DNA of 64,000 nt from Coraliomargarita sp. (lineage in GTDB: Bacteria; Verrucomicrobiota; Verrucomicrobiia; Opitutales; Coraliomargaritaceae), in assembly GCA_965216325.1 (NCBI GenBank), contig OZ244160.1:1376001-1440000 (forward strand). The letters run 5' to 3'. Each line of letters starts with the position of its first letter. Position 1 is the first letter of the stretch. A program made the position numbers and the translations under genes. Below the pieces are notes generated by a model, which worked only from the letters and a program-made list of their open reading frames with translations, was not told the origin of the DNA and did not search any database. Below are positions 6,304 to 54,050 of this stretch, piece after piece.

Positions 6304-6430
6304 CTATCTAAACTAACCCAACAGAACAGGAAACCTTACAGAAACGCCACACAAGTCGGCTGTAACAATGTTAACGCGAAGTACACAAATGAGCCACATT
6401 TAGCCCAAAACGATCATAAAAGGGCCACAG

Positions 6431-6468
6431 TTCACACTATTGTAACAATTGTGACGCTGTTCCGTAAC
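6431..6468 (+). promoter_or_regulatory. Pho-box-like direct repeats upstream of porin
   Basis: TTCAC 6431, GTAAC 6442, GTAAC 6464 in 11-bp register, upstream of phosphate-uptake genes. Confidence 0.5.
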
Positions 6469-6552
6469 CTTGATGGGCTATTTGTTACGGCGTCGCGACA
6501 AAAGCCACGAGGCATCCGCGAATCACTAAACAAAAGACAACAAACATACACG

Positions 6553-7692
6553 ATGAATACACCATCACGCATCCTTGGCCTGACTGCTCTCGCGGCAGCC
6601 AGCACTCCACTCGTCGCAGGCGCGTCCGAGACCCTCGAGAAGCTCGAGTCCAACCTCGAAAAAGCACTCAGCTATGCGACCCTTTACAAGAACGAAGACA
6701 ACAGCTTCATCCAAAAGGTAGCCTTCACTGGTCGTCTTCAGTATGACTATGCCTACTACGACAACGAAGAGACCAGCCACATTGAAGAGAACGAATGGCG
6801 CCGCGCTCGCGCAGGCTTCAAGGTCGACTTCCTCAACGAGTTCCAAGCACACGCAGAAATGGACATGGACTTTAACGACCACGACCCGGTCTACAACCGC
6901 CTCACCGATGCTTACATCGCATGGAAGCCAAACAGCGACCTGAAGATCAAGGTGGGTAAGCAATCCGCAGGCTTCACCCTCGACGGCGCGACTTCCTCCA
7001 AGAAGCTCTACCGTGCAGAGCGTAGCCTCATCGGCAGCAACATCTGGTTCGGCACTGAGTATTTCGTCGGTGCAACTGTAGCAGGCAAGCACGACAACTG
7101 GAACTGGAAGGGCGGCCTATTCTCTAACACACGCCGCCAGGAATTCGACAACACCTTCGACGGCAGCTGGTTCACCCTCGCTAGCGTTGGCTACAACTTC
7201 GCAGACGCACTCGAAGTCGACAACGCCACACTGCGCCTCGACTACGTCCACCAAGACGAAGCCAGCAACAGCGAAAGCCAATACACACACAGCCGCGACA
7301 ACCTCGAAAACATCGTATCTCTATCTTTCAAATACGACGACGGGAAGAAGCACCTCCACACCGATCTTGCCTACGCCGACGAACTTGACGGCAACGACAT
7401 TTTCGCCCTCCAGATCATGCCATTCTATGACCTGACCGAGCGCTTCCAAGTCGTAGGCAGCTACACCTACATCGAGAACGACGACGGCGGTCTTCGCGTA
7501 AGCCGTTACGCACGCCGCGCAGGAACAGCTGGAAACGACCCAGTCGACGAAATCCACGAGTTCTACCTCGGCTTGAACACCTACCTTTACGGTCACAAGG
7601 TGAAGTGGCAAAACGGCATCGAATATGCGACCACTAACGACGACGAATACGAAGGCCTCGGCTTCACCTCCGCATTCCGCTTCAGCTGGTAA
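6553..7692 (+). CDS. phosphate-selective porin (OprO/OprP family)
   Basis: Start reassigned to ATG 6553 (MNTPSRILGLTALAAA signal peptide); GRLQYD, WRRARAG, DAYIAW motifs; C-terminal aromatic beta-barrel signature; lies upstream of pstS. Confidence 0.85.
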   Translation: MNTPSRILGLTALAAASTPLVAGASETLEKLESNLEKALSYATLYKNEDNSFIQKVAFTGRLQYDYAYYDNEETSHIEENEWRRARAGFKVDFLNEFQAHAEMDMDFNDHDPVYNRLTDAYIAWKPNSDLKIKVGKQSAGFTLDGATSSKKLYRAERSLIGSNIWFGTEYFVGATVAGKHDNWNWKGGLFSNTRRQEFDNTFDGSWFTLASVGYNFADALEVDNATLRLDYVHQDEASNSESQYTHSRDNLENIVSLSFKYDDGKKHLHTDLAYADELDGNDIFALQIMPFYDLTERFQVVGSYTYIENDDGGLRVSRYARRAGTAGNDPVDEIHEFYLGLNTYLYGHKVKWQNGIEYATTNDDEYEGLGFTSAFRFSW

Positions 7693-7703
7693 CTCTTAAC
7701 AAT

Positions 7704-7746
7704 GTGACGCCGTTGTCACAGCAACGGCGTCCTTTCGTAACGTAAC
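7704..7746 (+). promoter_or_regulatory. Pho-box-like repeats overlapping a hairpin upstream of pstS
   Basis: GTGAC 7704, GTCAC 7715, GTAAC 7737 (11-bp register); hairpin GACGCCGTTG-tcacag-CAACGGCGTC. Confidence 0.5.
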
Positions 7747-7790
7747 TAGGTTAAATTTCATACAGCCGGCCCAACCGGCACTCTAATACT

Positions 7791-8615
7791 ATGAAGACAC
7801 AATCCATTCGTAACATTCTCGCAGTCGCCGCACTTACCTTCGGCGCCTCGCTTCAAGCGACCGAAACTCTGGTCATCAAGGGCTCCGACACACTTGGCGC
7901 AAAGATGGTTCCTCAGCTTGCTGAGGCATTCAAAGCAAAGATGCAAAAGCAAGGCGTTGACGTTGCTTTCGAAATCGCAGCTGAAGGCTCCTCCACTGGC
8001 GTCGCTTCTGTAATCGATGCAACTGCAGAAATCGGCATGTCCTCCCGCGACCCGAAGGATAAGGAAGTCGCTAAGGCTAAGACCAAGGGTGTCGACATGA
8101 AGACCCTCACAGTAGCTAAGGACGGCATCGCGATCATCGTAAACGAATCCAGCCCGCTTGAGTCCATCACCGTTGACGAGATCGAAATGATCTTCTCCGG
8201 CGATGCAACTGACTGGTCCGCAATCAGCACACAAACTGGCCCAATCTCAGCTTACACACGTAACACTTCCTCCGGAACCTACGCGGTCTTCCAAAAGCTC
8301 GGCATGAACTCCCGCGACTATGGTCCGGAAACTCAGAAGATGGCAGGCAACGAACAAATCGCTGCTGAAGTTGCAAAGAACCCAAATGGCATCGGCTACG
8401 TCGGTCTCGCTTACATCAACACACCGGGCGTTAAAGTTCTCCCAGTTGAAGGTGCAGCACCAACATCCGCCGACTACCCACTCGCTCGCCCACTTTACTA
8501 CCTGATCAACGGTGGTAAGGAGCTCAGCAGCACTGCCAACGACTTCATCGGTTTCACGATGAGCCCCGAAGGTCAGGCAATCATCGAGCGCGTGCACTTC
8601 CTGTCGATCTACTAA
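7791..8615 (+). CDS. pstS: phosphate ABC transporter substrate-binding protein
   Basis: IKGSDT, EGSSTG, IGMSSR, RNTSSGT, IGYVG, YPLARPL motifs. Confidence 0.95.
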
Positions 8616-17006: not shown

Positions 17007-20000
17007 TTACTCGGTGGGATCGGTTGGGTCCGTGCCCGCGATCCATTCGTCTAGATTGCTCACACCATCGAGGTCATAGTCGTCATCATACGCGATATTG
17101 TCGATTCCAACTCCAAGCGCACCACGCAAAGCCATCTCTTCAGCAATAATCCGATCCACAGCCAAGACCACTGGTGTGCTTGCTCCATTCGTTGGATCAG
17201 TTCCCAGAAGGAGCTCAATCAGATTATTCTCGGTGTCCAGATCGTTGTCGTCAGTGCTGCCAACGTCGACTGCAGGAGTGAAGATCGGATCCGCAGTCAC
17301 GCTGCCAAGCACTCCAAGCTCAGCCATCTCTTCGGCGACGAAGATATCAGCCTCGCTAGCTCCAGTAACACTAGAATTATCAATTGGATTAGAGCCAAAT
17401 TGGATTTCCGTCAGATTGTTGACGCCATCCAAGTCGAAGTCATCACGTGCACCGACTGGACCAGCAACCACACCCAAGACCGCCATTTGCACAATCACAT
17501 GGGCGTCCACAGCAGGCGAGACGCCATCCGCAACCGTCAGATCCGTGCCAGAGTAGATTTCCCGGATGTTGCTCACACCGTCCTGATCGTAGTCGCTGTC
17601 CGGCTGAGTATTTTGGGTCGTCAAGACCCCTGCAGTGTCGAATGCATCCGCGACAAAGACCTGCAGCGCATTCGGCTGATCTGAGAAGTTGTCCGGATCC
17701 GTGCCGACAATCACTTCAGCGAGGTTGCTACTACCGTCTCCATCATAATCATCTGCAGCGGCAATATCGAGCATATCGACTTCGTAAATACCTAAGACTG
17801 CAAACTGTTCCGCGACGAAGCTGTCCTCCGGATCACTCAGTGTCGGTGTCTCGGTATCATCCTTCGGGTTCGTGCCATACATGAGCTCGATCAAGTTATT
17901 GATACCATCAGCATCATAGTCACCTTCAGGGCTAAGCTCGGGGTTCAACGGTGCCGGATCAGAATCCGGGATCTCACTGAGCGCATTGCTCACAAAGGTC
18001 ACGACATCTGAAGCGAACATCGATGGAACTCTCGATTCAACCACCACACGCATGAAACCGTTCAGGGTATCCGCGACCGTTGTTGGGTAGCGAAGCGTGA
18101 CTCGAGCAGAGGAGCCTTCATCGACCACAGCAACCACATGAATCAAATCTTCAGGATTCTCTTGGCCGTCGCCCGCAGCACCGACTTGATCGATCAAACC
18201 ACCCTCACCCGTCAAGGAGTTGCTTCCAACTAAGCTATCGAATGGTGGCGCAATCGTAAGTGCCGAAATCAAATTACCTGCGGTAAAATCAACTCCATTC
18301 GATGCCTCCACGATATACGCTAAGTCGTTCGAACGTGTTACCAGGTCAAAAGTCACGGTTAAGTAGTCTTCAGACTCGAGTGTATCGACTCCATAAGTTC
18401 CGGGGAACTGGCCGCCAGTAGTCACACCCGACGCTGGGTTGCGATTGAAGGCATACGCGAGGAAATTATCCACTTCCTCGGGGTCAGCACTATCTGCATC
18501 GGCAACCACTCCATATACATTGCCCCAGGCTGCGGCATTCGTTGGCGCGGATGCGAACATCGAGAATAAGCCATCATCGACATCGGCAATCGGGAATGTG
18601 GTATTATCGACATCGATAAGATCCACATTCTTCCAGACGTTCACCTCGCCAGATTCATCCACAGTATCATCCGCATCCACGGTGATCTGGATGAAGTAGG
18701 TGTAGTCTGTGATGCCTTTGTCCTCCGCAAAGATCTGCACCATTCGTCCACCAGTCGGCAGCGTGAATTCGATGTCGAGTATGACACGATCCCCATCAGG
18801 CGCGGAGAGTCGACGTCCCTCCATCGCCTCCGCAATGGTCGTGGAGCCCAAATCCAAATAGCCCGTGATGGCATTCTCGAACTCATCAATCCCGCCCCCG
18901 GCAGATAATGCATTCGACAGCTCTTCGCGGTCAACGAAACCAAGTTGATAATTCACACGCCAGCTGAGCAAACGGCCATCTGCGTCAAACAGGTCATCCA
19001 AGCCGACATTCTGAATCTCCATCTCTAAGCGCATCGGCGCTTCCGGATAATAGAGCTTCGCTTCGTCATACTCGACGACATCAACATAGAAAGCCTCCTC
19101 ATTGCCAAACACATTTGGATCATTCAAGCCGTCATAAATCAACAAGCGTGGCTTGCGCTCGACTCGAACGTCCGGGTTGTCGGTGATGACGATATTATTG
19201 CTACTGGAGAACTCATCGACTCGGTCATTCGCATCAATCTTCACAATGAGGTAGTAGTCATTCTCAGGGATATGATCACCCAGCGGCAGACCTCCGAGGA
19301 AGCTCATAAACTGCCCACTCTCAAAGCTGCCCTCAACCTGGGTGAAGGATCCAAGCACAATATCATCCACATTACCGTAAATACGGTCGGTCGAGAGACG
19401 CACTTCCAAATCGGCAGAGGTGAACACGTCAACTGTAGGATCCAAATCCCGGCCTTGGTTCTGTGCCTGGACTGTAATGTCTAAGGTCTCGGTGCCCAAC
19501 TTCTGGTCAGGCGCACCATTAATGGCGCCCACATCCAAGACATAGGTTCCAGCCACGTAATCTAAATCAGTCAGCACCAGTTCCGCGGTGAGCTCCGGAG
19601 TCGCATCGGTGAATTCAATCAATTCCACTTGGTCGATGTAAGCGGTATCCAGATAGTCGCCTGCGGACGCAGTCTTGCGGTAAGACCAGCGCACAAGTTG
19701 TGCACCCGGTCCAGCTGGGATGAAGATAGTAATCTCTGGCCCAATACGAAGAGGCTGAATTTGCACATCTGAGTCCGTTCCCAGTTGCCCTTCCTGTGTG
19801 CCACGGAAGCGATCGGAATATAGTTCAGCCTCGATGGTGACTGGCTGTCGAAGACCAGCAGGATTGACCTCGATCAACTCACGCTCACCCACAACGTCGA
19901 AGCTGATCACAAAGTCCAAGACACTCTCTCCCGCTTCGGGACTGGTTTCAGCATTAGTGTGCAACGCAACACTCACGCCACCGGCAGCAACAATTGTGCT

Positions 20001-51032: not shown

Positions 51033-52403
51033 TTACCCGATAAATTTCTGGATGCGAGCGACCACACGCTCCTTGCCAAGCACCTCGAGCATCGGCAGCA
51101 GATCCGGACCACCGCTTTGGCCGCTCAATGCGTAGCGCAACGCGGGAAAATAAGCGAACACCTTGACCTCCTTCGCCTCAGCATGCGCCTCCAGCGCAGC
51201 CTTGATCGGATCTGCCGCAAACACTTCGATGCCCTCCAGCACCGGCAGAATTTCAGCGAGCAGCTCCTTCGGGTCCGCCTTCTTGGCGATTTTCGCACCG
51301 GTTTTCTCGTCCAACGGATACTCGTCTTTGAAGAAATAGCCGCACAGCTCACCGAGTGTATCCAGCGAACGAGCCTTCGGCTGGCAGAGCCCCAGAACCG
51401 CCTGCAGGTAGTCCTCATCCGCATCTTCCTCAATCACGCCCGCTTCGTTCAGCATTGGACGGGCAAGGAACGCAAAGCTCTCAAGGTTCAGCTCACGCAG
51501 ATATTCGGAATTCAGCGCAGACAGCTTCTTCTCGTCGAAACGCGCGTTGCCCTTGTTGATTCCCGGGAAGTCGAATAGCTCGATAATCTCATCGATGTCC
51601 ATCTTCTCGCTTTCGCGATCGTCCTTCGGATTCCAGCCGAGCAGCGAGATATAATTACGCACCGCAGCAGCAAGGAAGCCGCGTTGCGCATATTCCTCGA
51701 TCAGCGCACCCTTGTCGCGCTTACTCATTTTACCGGGACCGGACTCCTTAAGAATCAGCGGAATATGGGCAAACTTTGGCGGCTCAACACCGAAAGCCTT
51801 GAACAACTCGACGTGCTTGCTGGTATTCGAAAGGTGGTCCTCGCCGCGAATCACGTGCGTGATGCCCATCGCAATGTCATCGACAACATTGACCAGATGG
51901 AACACCGGATTGCCGTCCTTACGCACGATCACGAAGTCCAGCTCCTCGGCACGCTCGACACGACCACGGACTGCGTCGTCAATCACGACCGGCTCGGCCC
52001 GAACCTTCTCGACTTCAGCCTTCTTGAAATCGTCGTATTCCGTGTAGCGTTCCCCCTCGAGCTTGAACCAGATCGCGCCGTCCTTCTCGTAAGTGCGGCC
52101 CGCATCCTTCAACTTCTGCAGGTATTCGTCGTAGATCGGCTGACGCTCACTCTGGAAATACGGTCCGTAGTCGCCACCGACTTCCGGCCCCTCATCCCAG
52201 TCCATACCCATCCAGCGCATGCCATCGATCAACACGCGCAATGCCTCTTCGGTATTACGTTCCTTGTCGGTGTCCTCGATGCGCAGGATAAACTTACCGC
52301 CCGTATGACGCGCATACAACCAGTTAAACAGCGCCGTGCGGGCACTACCAATGTGAAAGAACCCAGTCGGGCTGGGCGCAAAACGAACACGAACTTCAGA
52401 CAT
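51033..52403 (-). CDS. gltX: glutamate--tRNA ligase
   Basis: [33 protein letters not shown] motifs. Confidence 0.97.
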
Positions 52404-52570
52404 AACTTAAAAAGGTTTAGCAGCCCCCGAGAGCGCAGGCCACAAAATGAAAGGAGGCACTCAAGCAACCCAGCGATTCGAGTCAACGCCGATCCATTGT
52501 ACACAACATTGACAATGACTGCATAAAAAGTGTCGACGCGGACCACAAACGGCCTATGCATCAACTTTTC

Positions 52571-53742
52571 TGGTAATTACCCCATAAGTTGAGCGCCGAG
52601 GGCCACATAAGTTGAGCCAAACCTGGTAATTAAGCATACTTTAAGGCGGTTATTGTTCGACTCAAAGAGTCCCTTTCACGTCGCTGCATTATGCAGGGCC
52701 TAATAAGTTGGCCCTAATTTAGGGCAGCATAAGTTGACCTACAGACCGGACGGGCTCGGACTAAAATCGGTGATCGAATAAGACAATCTGCGCTCATTTA
52801 GCGGGTAGTGCTCAATCTTAAAATGGTAGTCGTAAACCCCTTGCATGCACCGGACTTCAAAACCTCCCTCAATCGGACCACTTTTCGGGGGATAGCAACA
52901 TGGATTCACAGGCATACTTGCTAGTTGCAAAGATATGCCTATGAACCGATCCAGGTGGACGCGATCAATCACCGAGAATTGCTTAGGCTGTCGTTCACTA
53001 AACGAGGTTGACCAAACACTCCACGCCTTCCGCTCATCATGATCGAACACAGCAAAGCTGCTAGTTTTCAAATCGATGCATGTGATAAATAGCCACTGAA
53101 ACAACCTAAATGAGTGGTCGGAATTCAGTATCGATACGCTTCCTGCATCGTTGTCGGGATTAGGCGCAAGTAGCAGATATGGCTTCATCGAGGGTCCGAG
53201 TAGACTTTCCGAACTTTACCAACCACACAGCCAGATGAGTGAATATACTCATCATCCAGCTCATTGTCAGCCGTGCCGTCGCTCCTGCTAACCTGAGTCT
53301 ATGTCAGCTAATCTATGGCCCCTAAGGTCACCTGAACAGCATATTTGCCTGCAAGCCGCGGATTAAGATCGGCAAAAATATCAGCAAAAGCCGAAGCTAA
53401 GATGTCACATGAATCTAACTGTAAGTAATTTATGCATCAAAAAGGATCAGCAACAAGGTTGAGATTCCTTCAATCTTGGAGGCCTCATCAAAGTGAAATC
53501 AGCAAAATCCTTATAACTCAGTTTCTATCAAACTAGGCTTGCTGTTATGCAAATGAACCGCTTTTTATTCTCGTTCCTGTGCTTCGGTGCAGGAACTGCA
53601 TCATCTGGTGGAGATTACTGGCACCATAAGTTGGCAGCTTTAAGGCCTCATAACTTGGCGACAATTATAGGCACCATAAGTTGGCGATGGACCGGTGGCA
53701 CCATAAGTTGGCACTTTCGGTCAACTTATGGGGTAATTACCA
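52571..53742. mobile_element. non-autonomous transposon-like element (1172 bp) with 22-bp terminal inverted repeats and 5-bp flanking direct repeat
   Basis: TGGTAATTACCCCATAAGTTGA at 52571-52592 and its exact reverse complement at 53721-53742; TTTTC at 52566-52570 and 53743-53747; subterminal CATAAGTTG arrays; no recognisable transposase inside. Confidence 0.85.
52739..53188 (-). CDS. hypothetical protein or gene remnant (cargo of the element)
   Basis: Longest ORF-track ORF fully inside the element; no recognisable motif. Confidence 0.35.
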   Translation of the reverse strand: MKPYLLLAPNPDNDAGSVSILNSDHSFRLFQWLFITCIDLKTSSFAVFDHDERKAWSVWSTSFSERQPKQFSVIDRVHLDRFIGISLQLASMPVNPCCYPPKSGPIEGGFEVRCMQGVYDYHFKIEHYPLNERRLSYSITDFSPSPSGL

Positions 53743-53752
53743 TTTTCTGACC

Positions 53753-54050
<298 letters not shown>

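Follow-up and report, generated by a model that had tools for sequence, protein, structure and literature searches.

The described systems closest to the element treated here are the cyanobacterial TnsAB transposons that home to transfer RNA (tRNA) genes through a TnsD pathway (type I-B2/I-D; PmcCAST, McCAST and CyCAST). Excerpts of PMC9881144 (Hsieh and Peters 2022) describe a clade of tRNA-targeting TnsAB elements in which the target-facing end holds binding sites of both orientations, call this two-orientation arrangement unique among Tn7-like elements, and report that end as target-proximal in >99% of insertions; the same excerpts place McCAST insertions 29 +/- 1 bp downstream of the tRNA. 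CyCAST inserts 30-33 nt downstream of the tRNA according to part of PMC10293859, and part of PMC11837452 locates the recognised motif 40-50 bp from the end, in the 3' part of the tRNA. PMC8649781 states in general terms that insertion is 'downstream of tRNAs', and excerpts of an archaeal survey (bioRxiv 10.1101/2025.07.27.667033) mention tRNA sites and do not state the side. No Tn7 element upstream of a tRNA was found by a search of the full text of papers; the attachment-site lists in the supplements to PMC9881144 and PMC11837452 may already include one. We describe here a 1,172-bp element lying immediately upstream of a tRNA gene with anticodon CAT (tRNA-CAT) in a 64,000-nt stretch of Coraliomargarita sp. 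(assembly GCA_965216325.1, contig OZ244160.1, positions 1,376,001 to 1,440,000 of the forward strand; the whole stretch is called the window, and window coordinates are used for it below). The element is probably a non-autonomous Tn7-like derivative that was placed by a TnsD-type selector 5' of the tRNA-CAT gene. A first-pass annotation, made from the letters of the window, had proposed a possibly undescribed family; tRNA-homing TnsAB elements are published and to that extent the proposal went too far, but the published ones that we found insert downstream and this one upstream. The Tn7-like kind itself is known, and homing to the 5' flank of tRNA-CAT is the new point.

A recent insertion and its empty site

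The element spans 52571-53742 and is bounded by terminal inverted repeats of the 22-mer TGGTAATTACCCCATAAGTTGA (52571-52592, + strand, and 53721-53742, - strand; 0 mismatches), which begin with TG at the gltX-side end and finish with CA at the tRNA-proximal end. Allowing up to three mismatches, the 22-mer matched the window at the two termini and nowhere else, none of 100 shuffles gave any match, and the same two termini were the sole matches in the 3.06-Mb genome, in which the element is single-copy. The pentamer TTTTC stands on both flanks (52566-52570 and 53743-53747) as a 5-bp target-site duplication. The tRNA gene was placed by ARAGORN at 53753-53828 (+), leaving 10 nt between the element terminus and the mature 5' end. 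The genome has three genes for CAT-anticodon tRNAs; this one was also recognised by Rfam (tRNA, 75.5 bits), which found no other RNA family at the locus. ARAGORN labels it Met, and the first-pass annotation had labelled it Ile2. The element is foreign and recent, as seen from its G+C content (46.0%, against 52.9% for the genome), the perfect 22/22 match of its inverted repeats and its single copy.

Relatives without the insert show the site as it was before. Metagenome contigs from three studies (runs X5, X6 and X10) joined 52565 straight to 53743, thereby skipping 1,177 bp (1,172 + 5) and retaining a single TTTTC, with 6 letters common to both sides of the joint. These relatives were about 98.6% identical to the window in the flanks (for X5, 8 differing letters over a 566-nt flank). 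Four metagenome runs gave no depth over 52616-53693, and the bridging contigs are the whole of the metagenome evidence for the empty site. Outside these near-identical strains, the gltX-tRNA spacer of a genome of the same genus (G398) contained neither the insert nor the terminal palindrome, and other more distant relatives likewise had neither. The element is a true insertion with a 5-bp duplication, and the clean junction with one TTTTC that the first-pass annotation had expected in relatives was what the near-identical ones gave. A conserved native regulatory region was considered and rejected because presence or absence of the stretch varies among near-identical strains.

The element carries no recognisable gene of its own. 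No family in Pfam or PHROG fitted any frame of at least 35 aa within it, and in tblastn with 11 Tns proteins the best E within the element was 0.02, and the genome as a whole had no match at E 1e-3. The longest open frame, of 149 aa (52739-53188, - strand), had no relative, finding only itself among 5.8 billion proteins of similar length, and is probably not a conserved gene. A search of the genome for a helper (all but 24 kb covered) returned two rve frames of IS3 size and no TniQ above the cut-off. The Mu-transposase C-terminal family matched nothing anywhere, a result that is uninformative because the controls were silent too. Having no tns gene, the element would be a non-autonomous derivative and not a full Tn7-like member. 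What the first-pass annotation had read from the letters (perfect 22-bp inverted repeats, TTTTC on both flanks, a terminus 10 bp before the mature tRNA, no recognisable transposase, and therefore a non-autonomous or internally deleted element) is borne out by these analyses, with no tns gene detected in the element or in the genome.

The insertion lies within the spacer between the tRNA gene and gltX (51033-52403, - strand; glutamyl-tRNA synthetase-type, PF00749 E 1.1e-70, PF19269), which is divergent from the tRNA. On the other side of the locus, a perfect 111-bp tandem repeat (53808-54050; 2.2 copies, 100% matches) begins in the T-arm of the tRNA, such that two further copies of the tRNA 3' end follow it. 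Integrase-type traffic at the tRNA 3' end may have left this trace; alternatively, the repeat may be a recent duplication.

End sites and Tn7-like elements at tRNA-CAT genes

The two ends are built from repeated sites and are not alike. At no more than one mismatch, CATAAGTTG occurred 18 times in the window, and nine of these occurrences fell within the two ends, as the first-pass annotation's mention of clustered sites had implied; the remaining nine were scattered, where 9.2 would be expected for the whole window. The tRNA-distal, gltX-side end (52571-52744, +) has four sites (52583, 52606, 52702, which reads AATAAGTTG, and 52728), of which the first lies within the terminal inverted repeat and all are oriented like that terminal site; a second copy of the terminal 10-mer CTGGTAATTA is found at 52623-52632 (+), 53 bp inside this end. 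The tRNA-proximal end (53619-53742, -) has five: a terminal site at 53722-53730 (-) and four subterminal sites on the + strand (53702, 53675, 53649, which reads CATAACTTG, and 53625), all of which run opposite to the terminal one. Its layout is TG, 11 nt, ATAAGTTGA and then the inverted subterminal sites. The ends are thus asymmetric in site number (four distal, five proximal), in spacing and in orientation, and the end with sites in both orientations faces the tRNA, as it does in the tRNA-homing TnsAB-fusion clade. We count this match in asymmetry as support for a Tn7-like derivative directed to the tRNA. The nine CATAAGTTG-type repeats are putative TnsB binding sites.

The tRNA-proximal end was found a second time, in another genome of the order (G144), where it is 80% identical over 130 bp (C22:1470-1599, E 2.6e-25) with an identical 22-mer. 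There it stops 10 bp before the 5' half of a tRNA-CAT, and the same end faces the tRNA. The 10-bp spacers between terminus and tRNA in the window's own genome (G000) and in G144 match at 1 of 10 positions; since the spacers are unrelated, the G144 end represents a separate insertion. A set distance from a conserved gene and a single orientation are seen in both insertions (n = 2). G144 also has an N-terminal fragment of a tniQ gene (Pfam TniQ, E 1.8e-5) pointing at the transposon end, for which a word-indexed search gave no longer homologue. In the same stretch (L005, on C22 of G144, 1422-2362), the outer tRNA-CAT is truncated just after the anticodon and is followed by a phage-type gene (phrog_13260), and a 193-bp repeat of the tniQ fragment lies 15.7 kb away (18058-18250).

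Autonomous elements were sought with TniQ and TnsAB homologue searches of 41 genomes of the family, 151 and 401 of the order and 401 of the phylum. Thirteen Tn7-like loci were examined, and four of them (in G405, G323 and G095, and one of two in G268) face a tRNA-CAT gene: tnsAB-tnsC-tnsD reads into the 5' flank of the gene on the same strand. The four TnsD proteins are mutually related over about 420 aa, with 25-57% identity and E 1e-32 or better, and form a rare group: of 1.84 billion representative clusters, only 6 reach E 1e-30 with the G095 protein. The alignment between the TnsAB of G405 and a cyanobacterial fused TnsAB runs the full length of both (E 2e-74); across the order relatives at tRNA-CAT, TnsAB measures 846-912 aa and the TnsD-size TniQ 449-514 aa. 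Their tRNA-side stretches contain inverted TGT../..ACA units, from which the termini would lie 11, 14 and about 15 nt before the tRNA. The target tRNAs are of two types, GGGCC.. (G000, G144, G095 and G268) and GCCAGAG.. (G405 and G323), both of them present in the window's genome, and the two types share most of positions 8 to about 48. The suggestion in the first-pass annotation that the tRNA was aimed at, and from its upstream side, agrees with the G144 end and with these four tnsAB-tnsC-tnsD elements.

Several further features were noted at the Tn7-like loci. In G268 (L064, G268:C1:1283000-1302999, minus strand, about 6380-6720) the anticodon loop of the tRNA-CAT beside the transposon is interrupted by about 250 nt of inserted sequence; the gene goes undetected by ARAGORN, and Rfam matches no family, introns included, within the insert. 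In G323 (L065, G323:C1:640000-659999) the 5' part of tnsAB is present in four diverged copies in tandem, spaced 563, 551 and 321 bp, at 6320-7876 upstream of the intact gene. A divergent gene with helix-turn-helix and peptidase S24 (LexA-like) domains stands just before tnsAB in G405 (L048, 4993-5955, - strand) and could be a repressor of the transposon that responds to damage; a similarly sized frame occupies the corresponding place in G095 (L053, 6982-7932). At a TnsA-TnsB-TnsC-TnsD element in G398 (L079, C4, about 1740-1770, - strand), a palindrome, TATTACCA-5 nt-TGGTAATA, follows directly upon the last tniQ-like frame, and its arms have in common with the window element the first seven letters of the latter's inverted repeat. 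No tRNA was found at this locus, and Rfam matched nothing in the stretch after the operon.

The end motif itself was followed by scanning for the inverted site pair CATAAGTTGR-N9-TCAACTTATGG, a pattern that fits both G000 and G144, in one genome each of 185,579 species. Seven loci were obtained. Two of these lie 60-270 bp past the stop of a tniQ gene: L033 (Chloroflexi), after an operon of TnsA, TnsB, TniB/TnsC and TniQ, and L035 (cyanobacterial), after an operon of fused TnsAB, TnsC and TniQ. Two others (L034 and L036) have ends homologous to those of L033/L035, so that four of the seven share the layout; the remaining three are apparently unrelated palindromes. L033 and L036 have common sequence inside and unrelated flanks outside, and the break between the two falls exactly at TG + 11 nt + ATAAGTTG, as in the layout of the window element. 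Because the end motif adjoins tns genes, a TnsB of Tn7-like type is much likelier to act on it than an IS21 transposase or a tyrosine recombinase. The TnsB-type character that the first-pass annotation had assigned to the ends is supported accordingly by TnsA/TnsB-TnsC-TniQ neighbours. Its expectation of long copies was answered in part: the motif and layout do stand beside such genes, but no long copy carrying these particular repeats turned up; nor was any full copy of the element found that would carry istA/istB, and the motif-sharing ends adjoin tns and not ist genes.

The genome of the window holds a further candidate end. A homologue of the G405/G323 tRNA-side end (G000:C1:2525910-2526054; L081/L082), which we treat as a relic, lies directly after dnaX and 11 nt before the genome's other elongator-type (GCCAGAG-type) tRNA-CAT, and is common to G398 of the same genus. 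Among the 41 family genomes, the stretch upstream of the tRNA in the relic was matched only in its own genome, G398, G405, G344 and G406. In the other family genomes with a match, the best match starts 0-6 nt before the tRNA, and five among the matches listed have a different, promoter-like upstream block, CTTGACT..TTTCTAC, ending 12-16 nt before it. It is less likely that the relic stretches are native chromosomal sequence and that the true transposon ends are elsewhere. In relatives, spacers of both the Met-type and the Ile2-type tRNA-CAT genes hold promoter-like blocks, which put the insertion point downstream of the likely native promoter and ahead of the mature 5' end. As the insert cuts the tRNA from its upstream spacer, transcription of the tRNA would have to come from the element's end or from read-through.

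Placement of the element and rival explanations

A mechanism can be outlined for a non-autonomous Tn7-like derivative placed by a TnsD-type selector. The machinery would be of Tn7-like type, comprising a TnsB-family DDE transposase with TnsA or as fused TnsAB, a TnsC ATPase and a TniQ/TnsD selector, with TnsA/B, TnsC and the TnsD-like protein supplied in trans by a helper element. The helper TnsB would bind the CATAAGTTG sites and the ends would be paired. By analogy with Tn7 and its cyanobacterial relatives, TnsD would bind the tRNA-CAT gene at the DNA level some 20-60 bp away from the site of insertion, a stretch that here takes in the D and anticodon arms, and would direct insertion to positions -10 to -6 (counted from the mature 5' end), in a single orientation that turns the two-orientation end to the tRNA. 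Since the helper is not in the genome, the copy would now be stranded.

More tentatively, these loci could mark a Tn7-like clade whose TnsD reads the 5' half of tRNA-CAT and whose insertions part single-copy tRNA genes (probable Ile2 and elongator Met) from their promoters, just ahead of the mature 5' end. The transposon end would then have to drive the tRNA and the host would come to depend on it; such dependence would explain why bare ends and gene-less relics persist before both tRNA-CAT genes of the window's genome.

A number of results weigh against the reading of the element as a Tn7-like derivative placed by a tRNA-reading selector. The weakest link is the missing parent: no copy was found that pairs these repeats with tns genes, the 22-mer and the site pair were confined to G000 and G144 among the 401 order genomes, and an exact 20-mer of the repeat had 0 matches in genome contigs and 0 in viral contigs. 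(The same 20-mer gave one match in metagenome contigs, inside a large secreted-protein gene, which we take as chance; a 3-mismatch match to the repeat in G190 lies within coding sequence and was rejected as an element end.) The four autonomous elements carry repeat sequences other than those of the window element. Their termini, at 11, 14 and about 15 nt, keep no one fixed distance, and the terminus in G268 could not be named; far ends and duplications were not found for G405, G095 and G323, nor for the Tn7-like locus of G398. Nine of the 13 Tn7-like loci had no ARAGORN tRNA in the 13-20 kb read. In G144, the closest match of the tniQ fragment is a TniQ that does not belong to the tRNA-CAT group, and a full tRNA-CAT also stands inside the transposon end, which this reading does not account for. 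There is no tRNA near L033-L036, so the link from motif to tRNA is made by G000 and G144 alone. Finally, the tRNA-side ends of G000, G405 and G095 showed no sigma-70 consensus promoter.

One could suppose instead that the element is a miniature member of another TG..CA DDE family (IS21, Mu-like, or Tn5053/Tn402 without a tRNA-reading selector) and that it came to lie before a tRNA by chance or through a loose regional preference. The element encodes nothing and its parent was not found, and several DDE families have TG..CA ends, a 5-bp duplication and repeated subterminal sites. We nevertheless regard this as unlikely, for the 10-13-nt site motif and the terminal layout adjoin TnsA/TnsB/TnsC/TniQ genes and not istAB, two separate insertions of the same ends are alike in orientation and in stopping exactly 10 bp short of a tRNA-CAT 5' end, and four Tn7-like operons of the same order occupy the same kind of site.

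Another explanation retains a Tn7-like derivative but has its position set by a pathway that takes no account of the tRNA, such as a second small TniQ or some other guide, with a feature of the spacer (e.g., promoter or leader) as the attraction. The motif-sharing records, which have a small TniQ only (350-407 aa) and no adjacent tRNA, would suit it, as would the affinity of the G144 tniQ fragment with a TniQ from outside the tRNA-CAT group; in addition, TTTTC lies in a TTTTCTGAC motif, and TTTTCTGAC also precedes this tRNA in G402. However, the 10-nt spacer differs between G000 and G144 and it is the tRNA that is the shared sequence; spacers upstream of the insertion point are unrelated among six loci, whereas the tRNA-CAT genes share positions 8 to about 48, and we judge such placement distinctly improbable.

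An integrase-type island, formed by recombinase crossover in the palindrome GGTAATTACC with TTTTC already in place, can hardly be right and was rejected on the empty site of relatives: GGTAATTACC is self-complementary, the left junction reads as an imperfect 32-bp palindrome and the tRNA-side end has an inverted site pair around a 9-bp spacer, but the element has no recombinase gene and the empty site has one TTTTC, a skip of exactly 1,172 + 5 bp and no palindrome, by which crossing-over by a site-specific recombinase in GGTAATTACC is ruled out.

Comparison with known systems

Guided choice of a 'safe' site, by protein or by RNA, is nowhere better understood than in Tn7-like transposons, on which programmable DNA-insertion tools are built. 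If a selector does recognise a tRNA gene from its 5' side and set the element 10-15 bp ahead of the mature end, this would be a new TnsD specificity and a new geometry. Such a selector would also place a transposon between a promoter and an indispensable gene, and raise the question whether a promoter is supplied by the element's end. With its defined ends, an exact empty site and strains that do not have the insert, the gene-less copy offers a natural 'mini' substrate, and the operons of G405, G323 and G095 are candidates for reconstituting homing to tRNA-CAT; helpers for the window mini-element itself would need a TnsB of matching site type, and none was found.

Tn7 (TnsABC+D, attTn7, downstream of glmS) resembles the window element in its 5-bp duplication, its asymmetric site arrays, the one end facing the gene and the set distance outside that gene. 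It differs in that its sites are unidirectional within an end, its target is the 3' end of a protein gene with insertion downstream, and it is autonomous. Tn5053/Tn402 (TniA-TniB-TniQ-TniR) has a TnsB-like transposase, the TniB ATPase, a small TniQ, a 5-bp duplication and repeated end sites; its insertions go to resolution sites in plasmids and transposons and it has a resolvase of its own, whereas the relatives found here carry TnsA or TnsAB.

As a pair of ends with no transposase, dependent on a helper in trans, the element would be comparable to miniature inverted-repeat transposable elements (MITEs) and to the mini-Tn7 of the laboratory. Its inverted repeats, duplication and gene-less state fit a MITE; its one copy per genome and its length of 1,172 bp do not. 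No description of a natural gene-less Tn7-like element was found in titles and abstracts of the literature, among the matches listed. Insertion no more than tens of bases upstream of tRNA genes, as a safe harbour, is known from Ty3, Ty1 and Dictyostelium TRE5-A, but these are retrotransposons that recognise the RNA polymerase III machinery and not a DNA sequence.

The nearest likeness remains with the cyanobacterial tRNA-homing TnsAB elements, as far as the excerpts describing them go. The relatives found in the order likewise have a fused TnsAB, TnsC and a TnsD-size TniQ, and the window element shares with PmcCAST, McCAST and CyCAST a tRNA target, a two-orientation end facing that target, a 5-bp duplication and ends that are not strictly TGT/ACA. 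No CRISPR-Cas genes were seen among the open reading frames checked at the loci examined, the hosts lie outside the cyanobacteria, and the window copy, unlike the CAST (CRISPR-associated transposon) elements, is without any genes. The described elements go to tRNA-Leu or tRNA-Val, read a 3' motif and insert about 29-33 bp downstream of the tRNA 3' end, whereas the target here is tRNA-CAT and the element stands 10 nt upstream of the mature 5' end (10-15 in its relatives).

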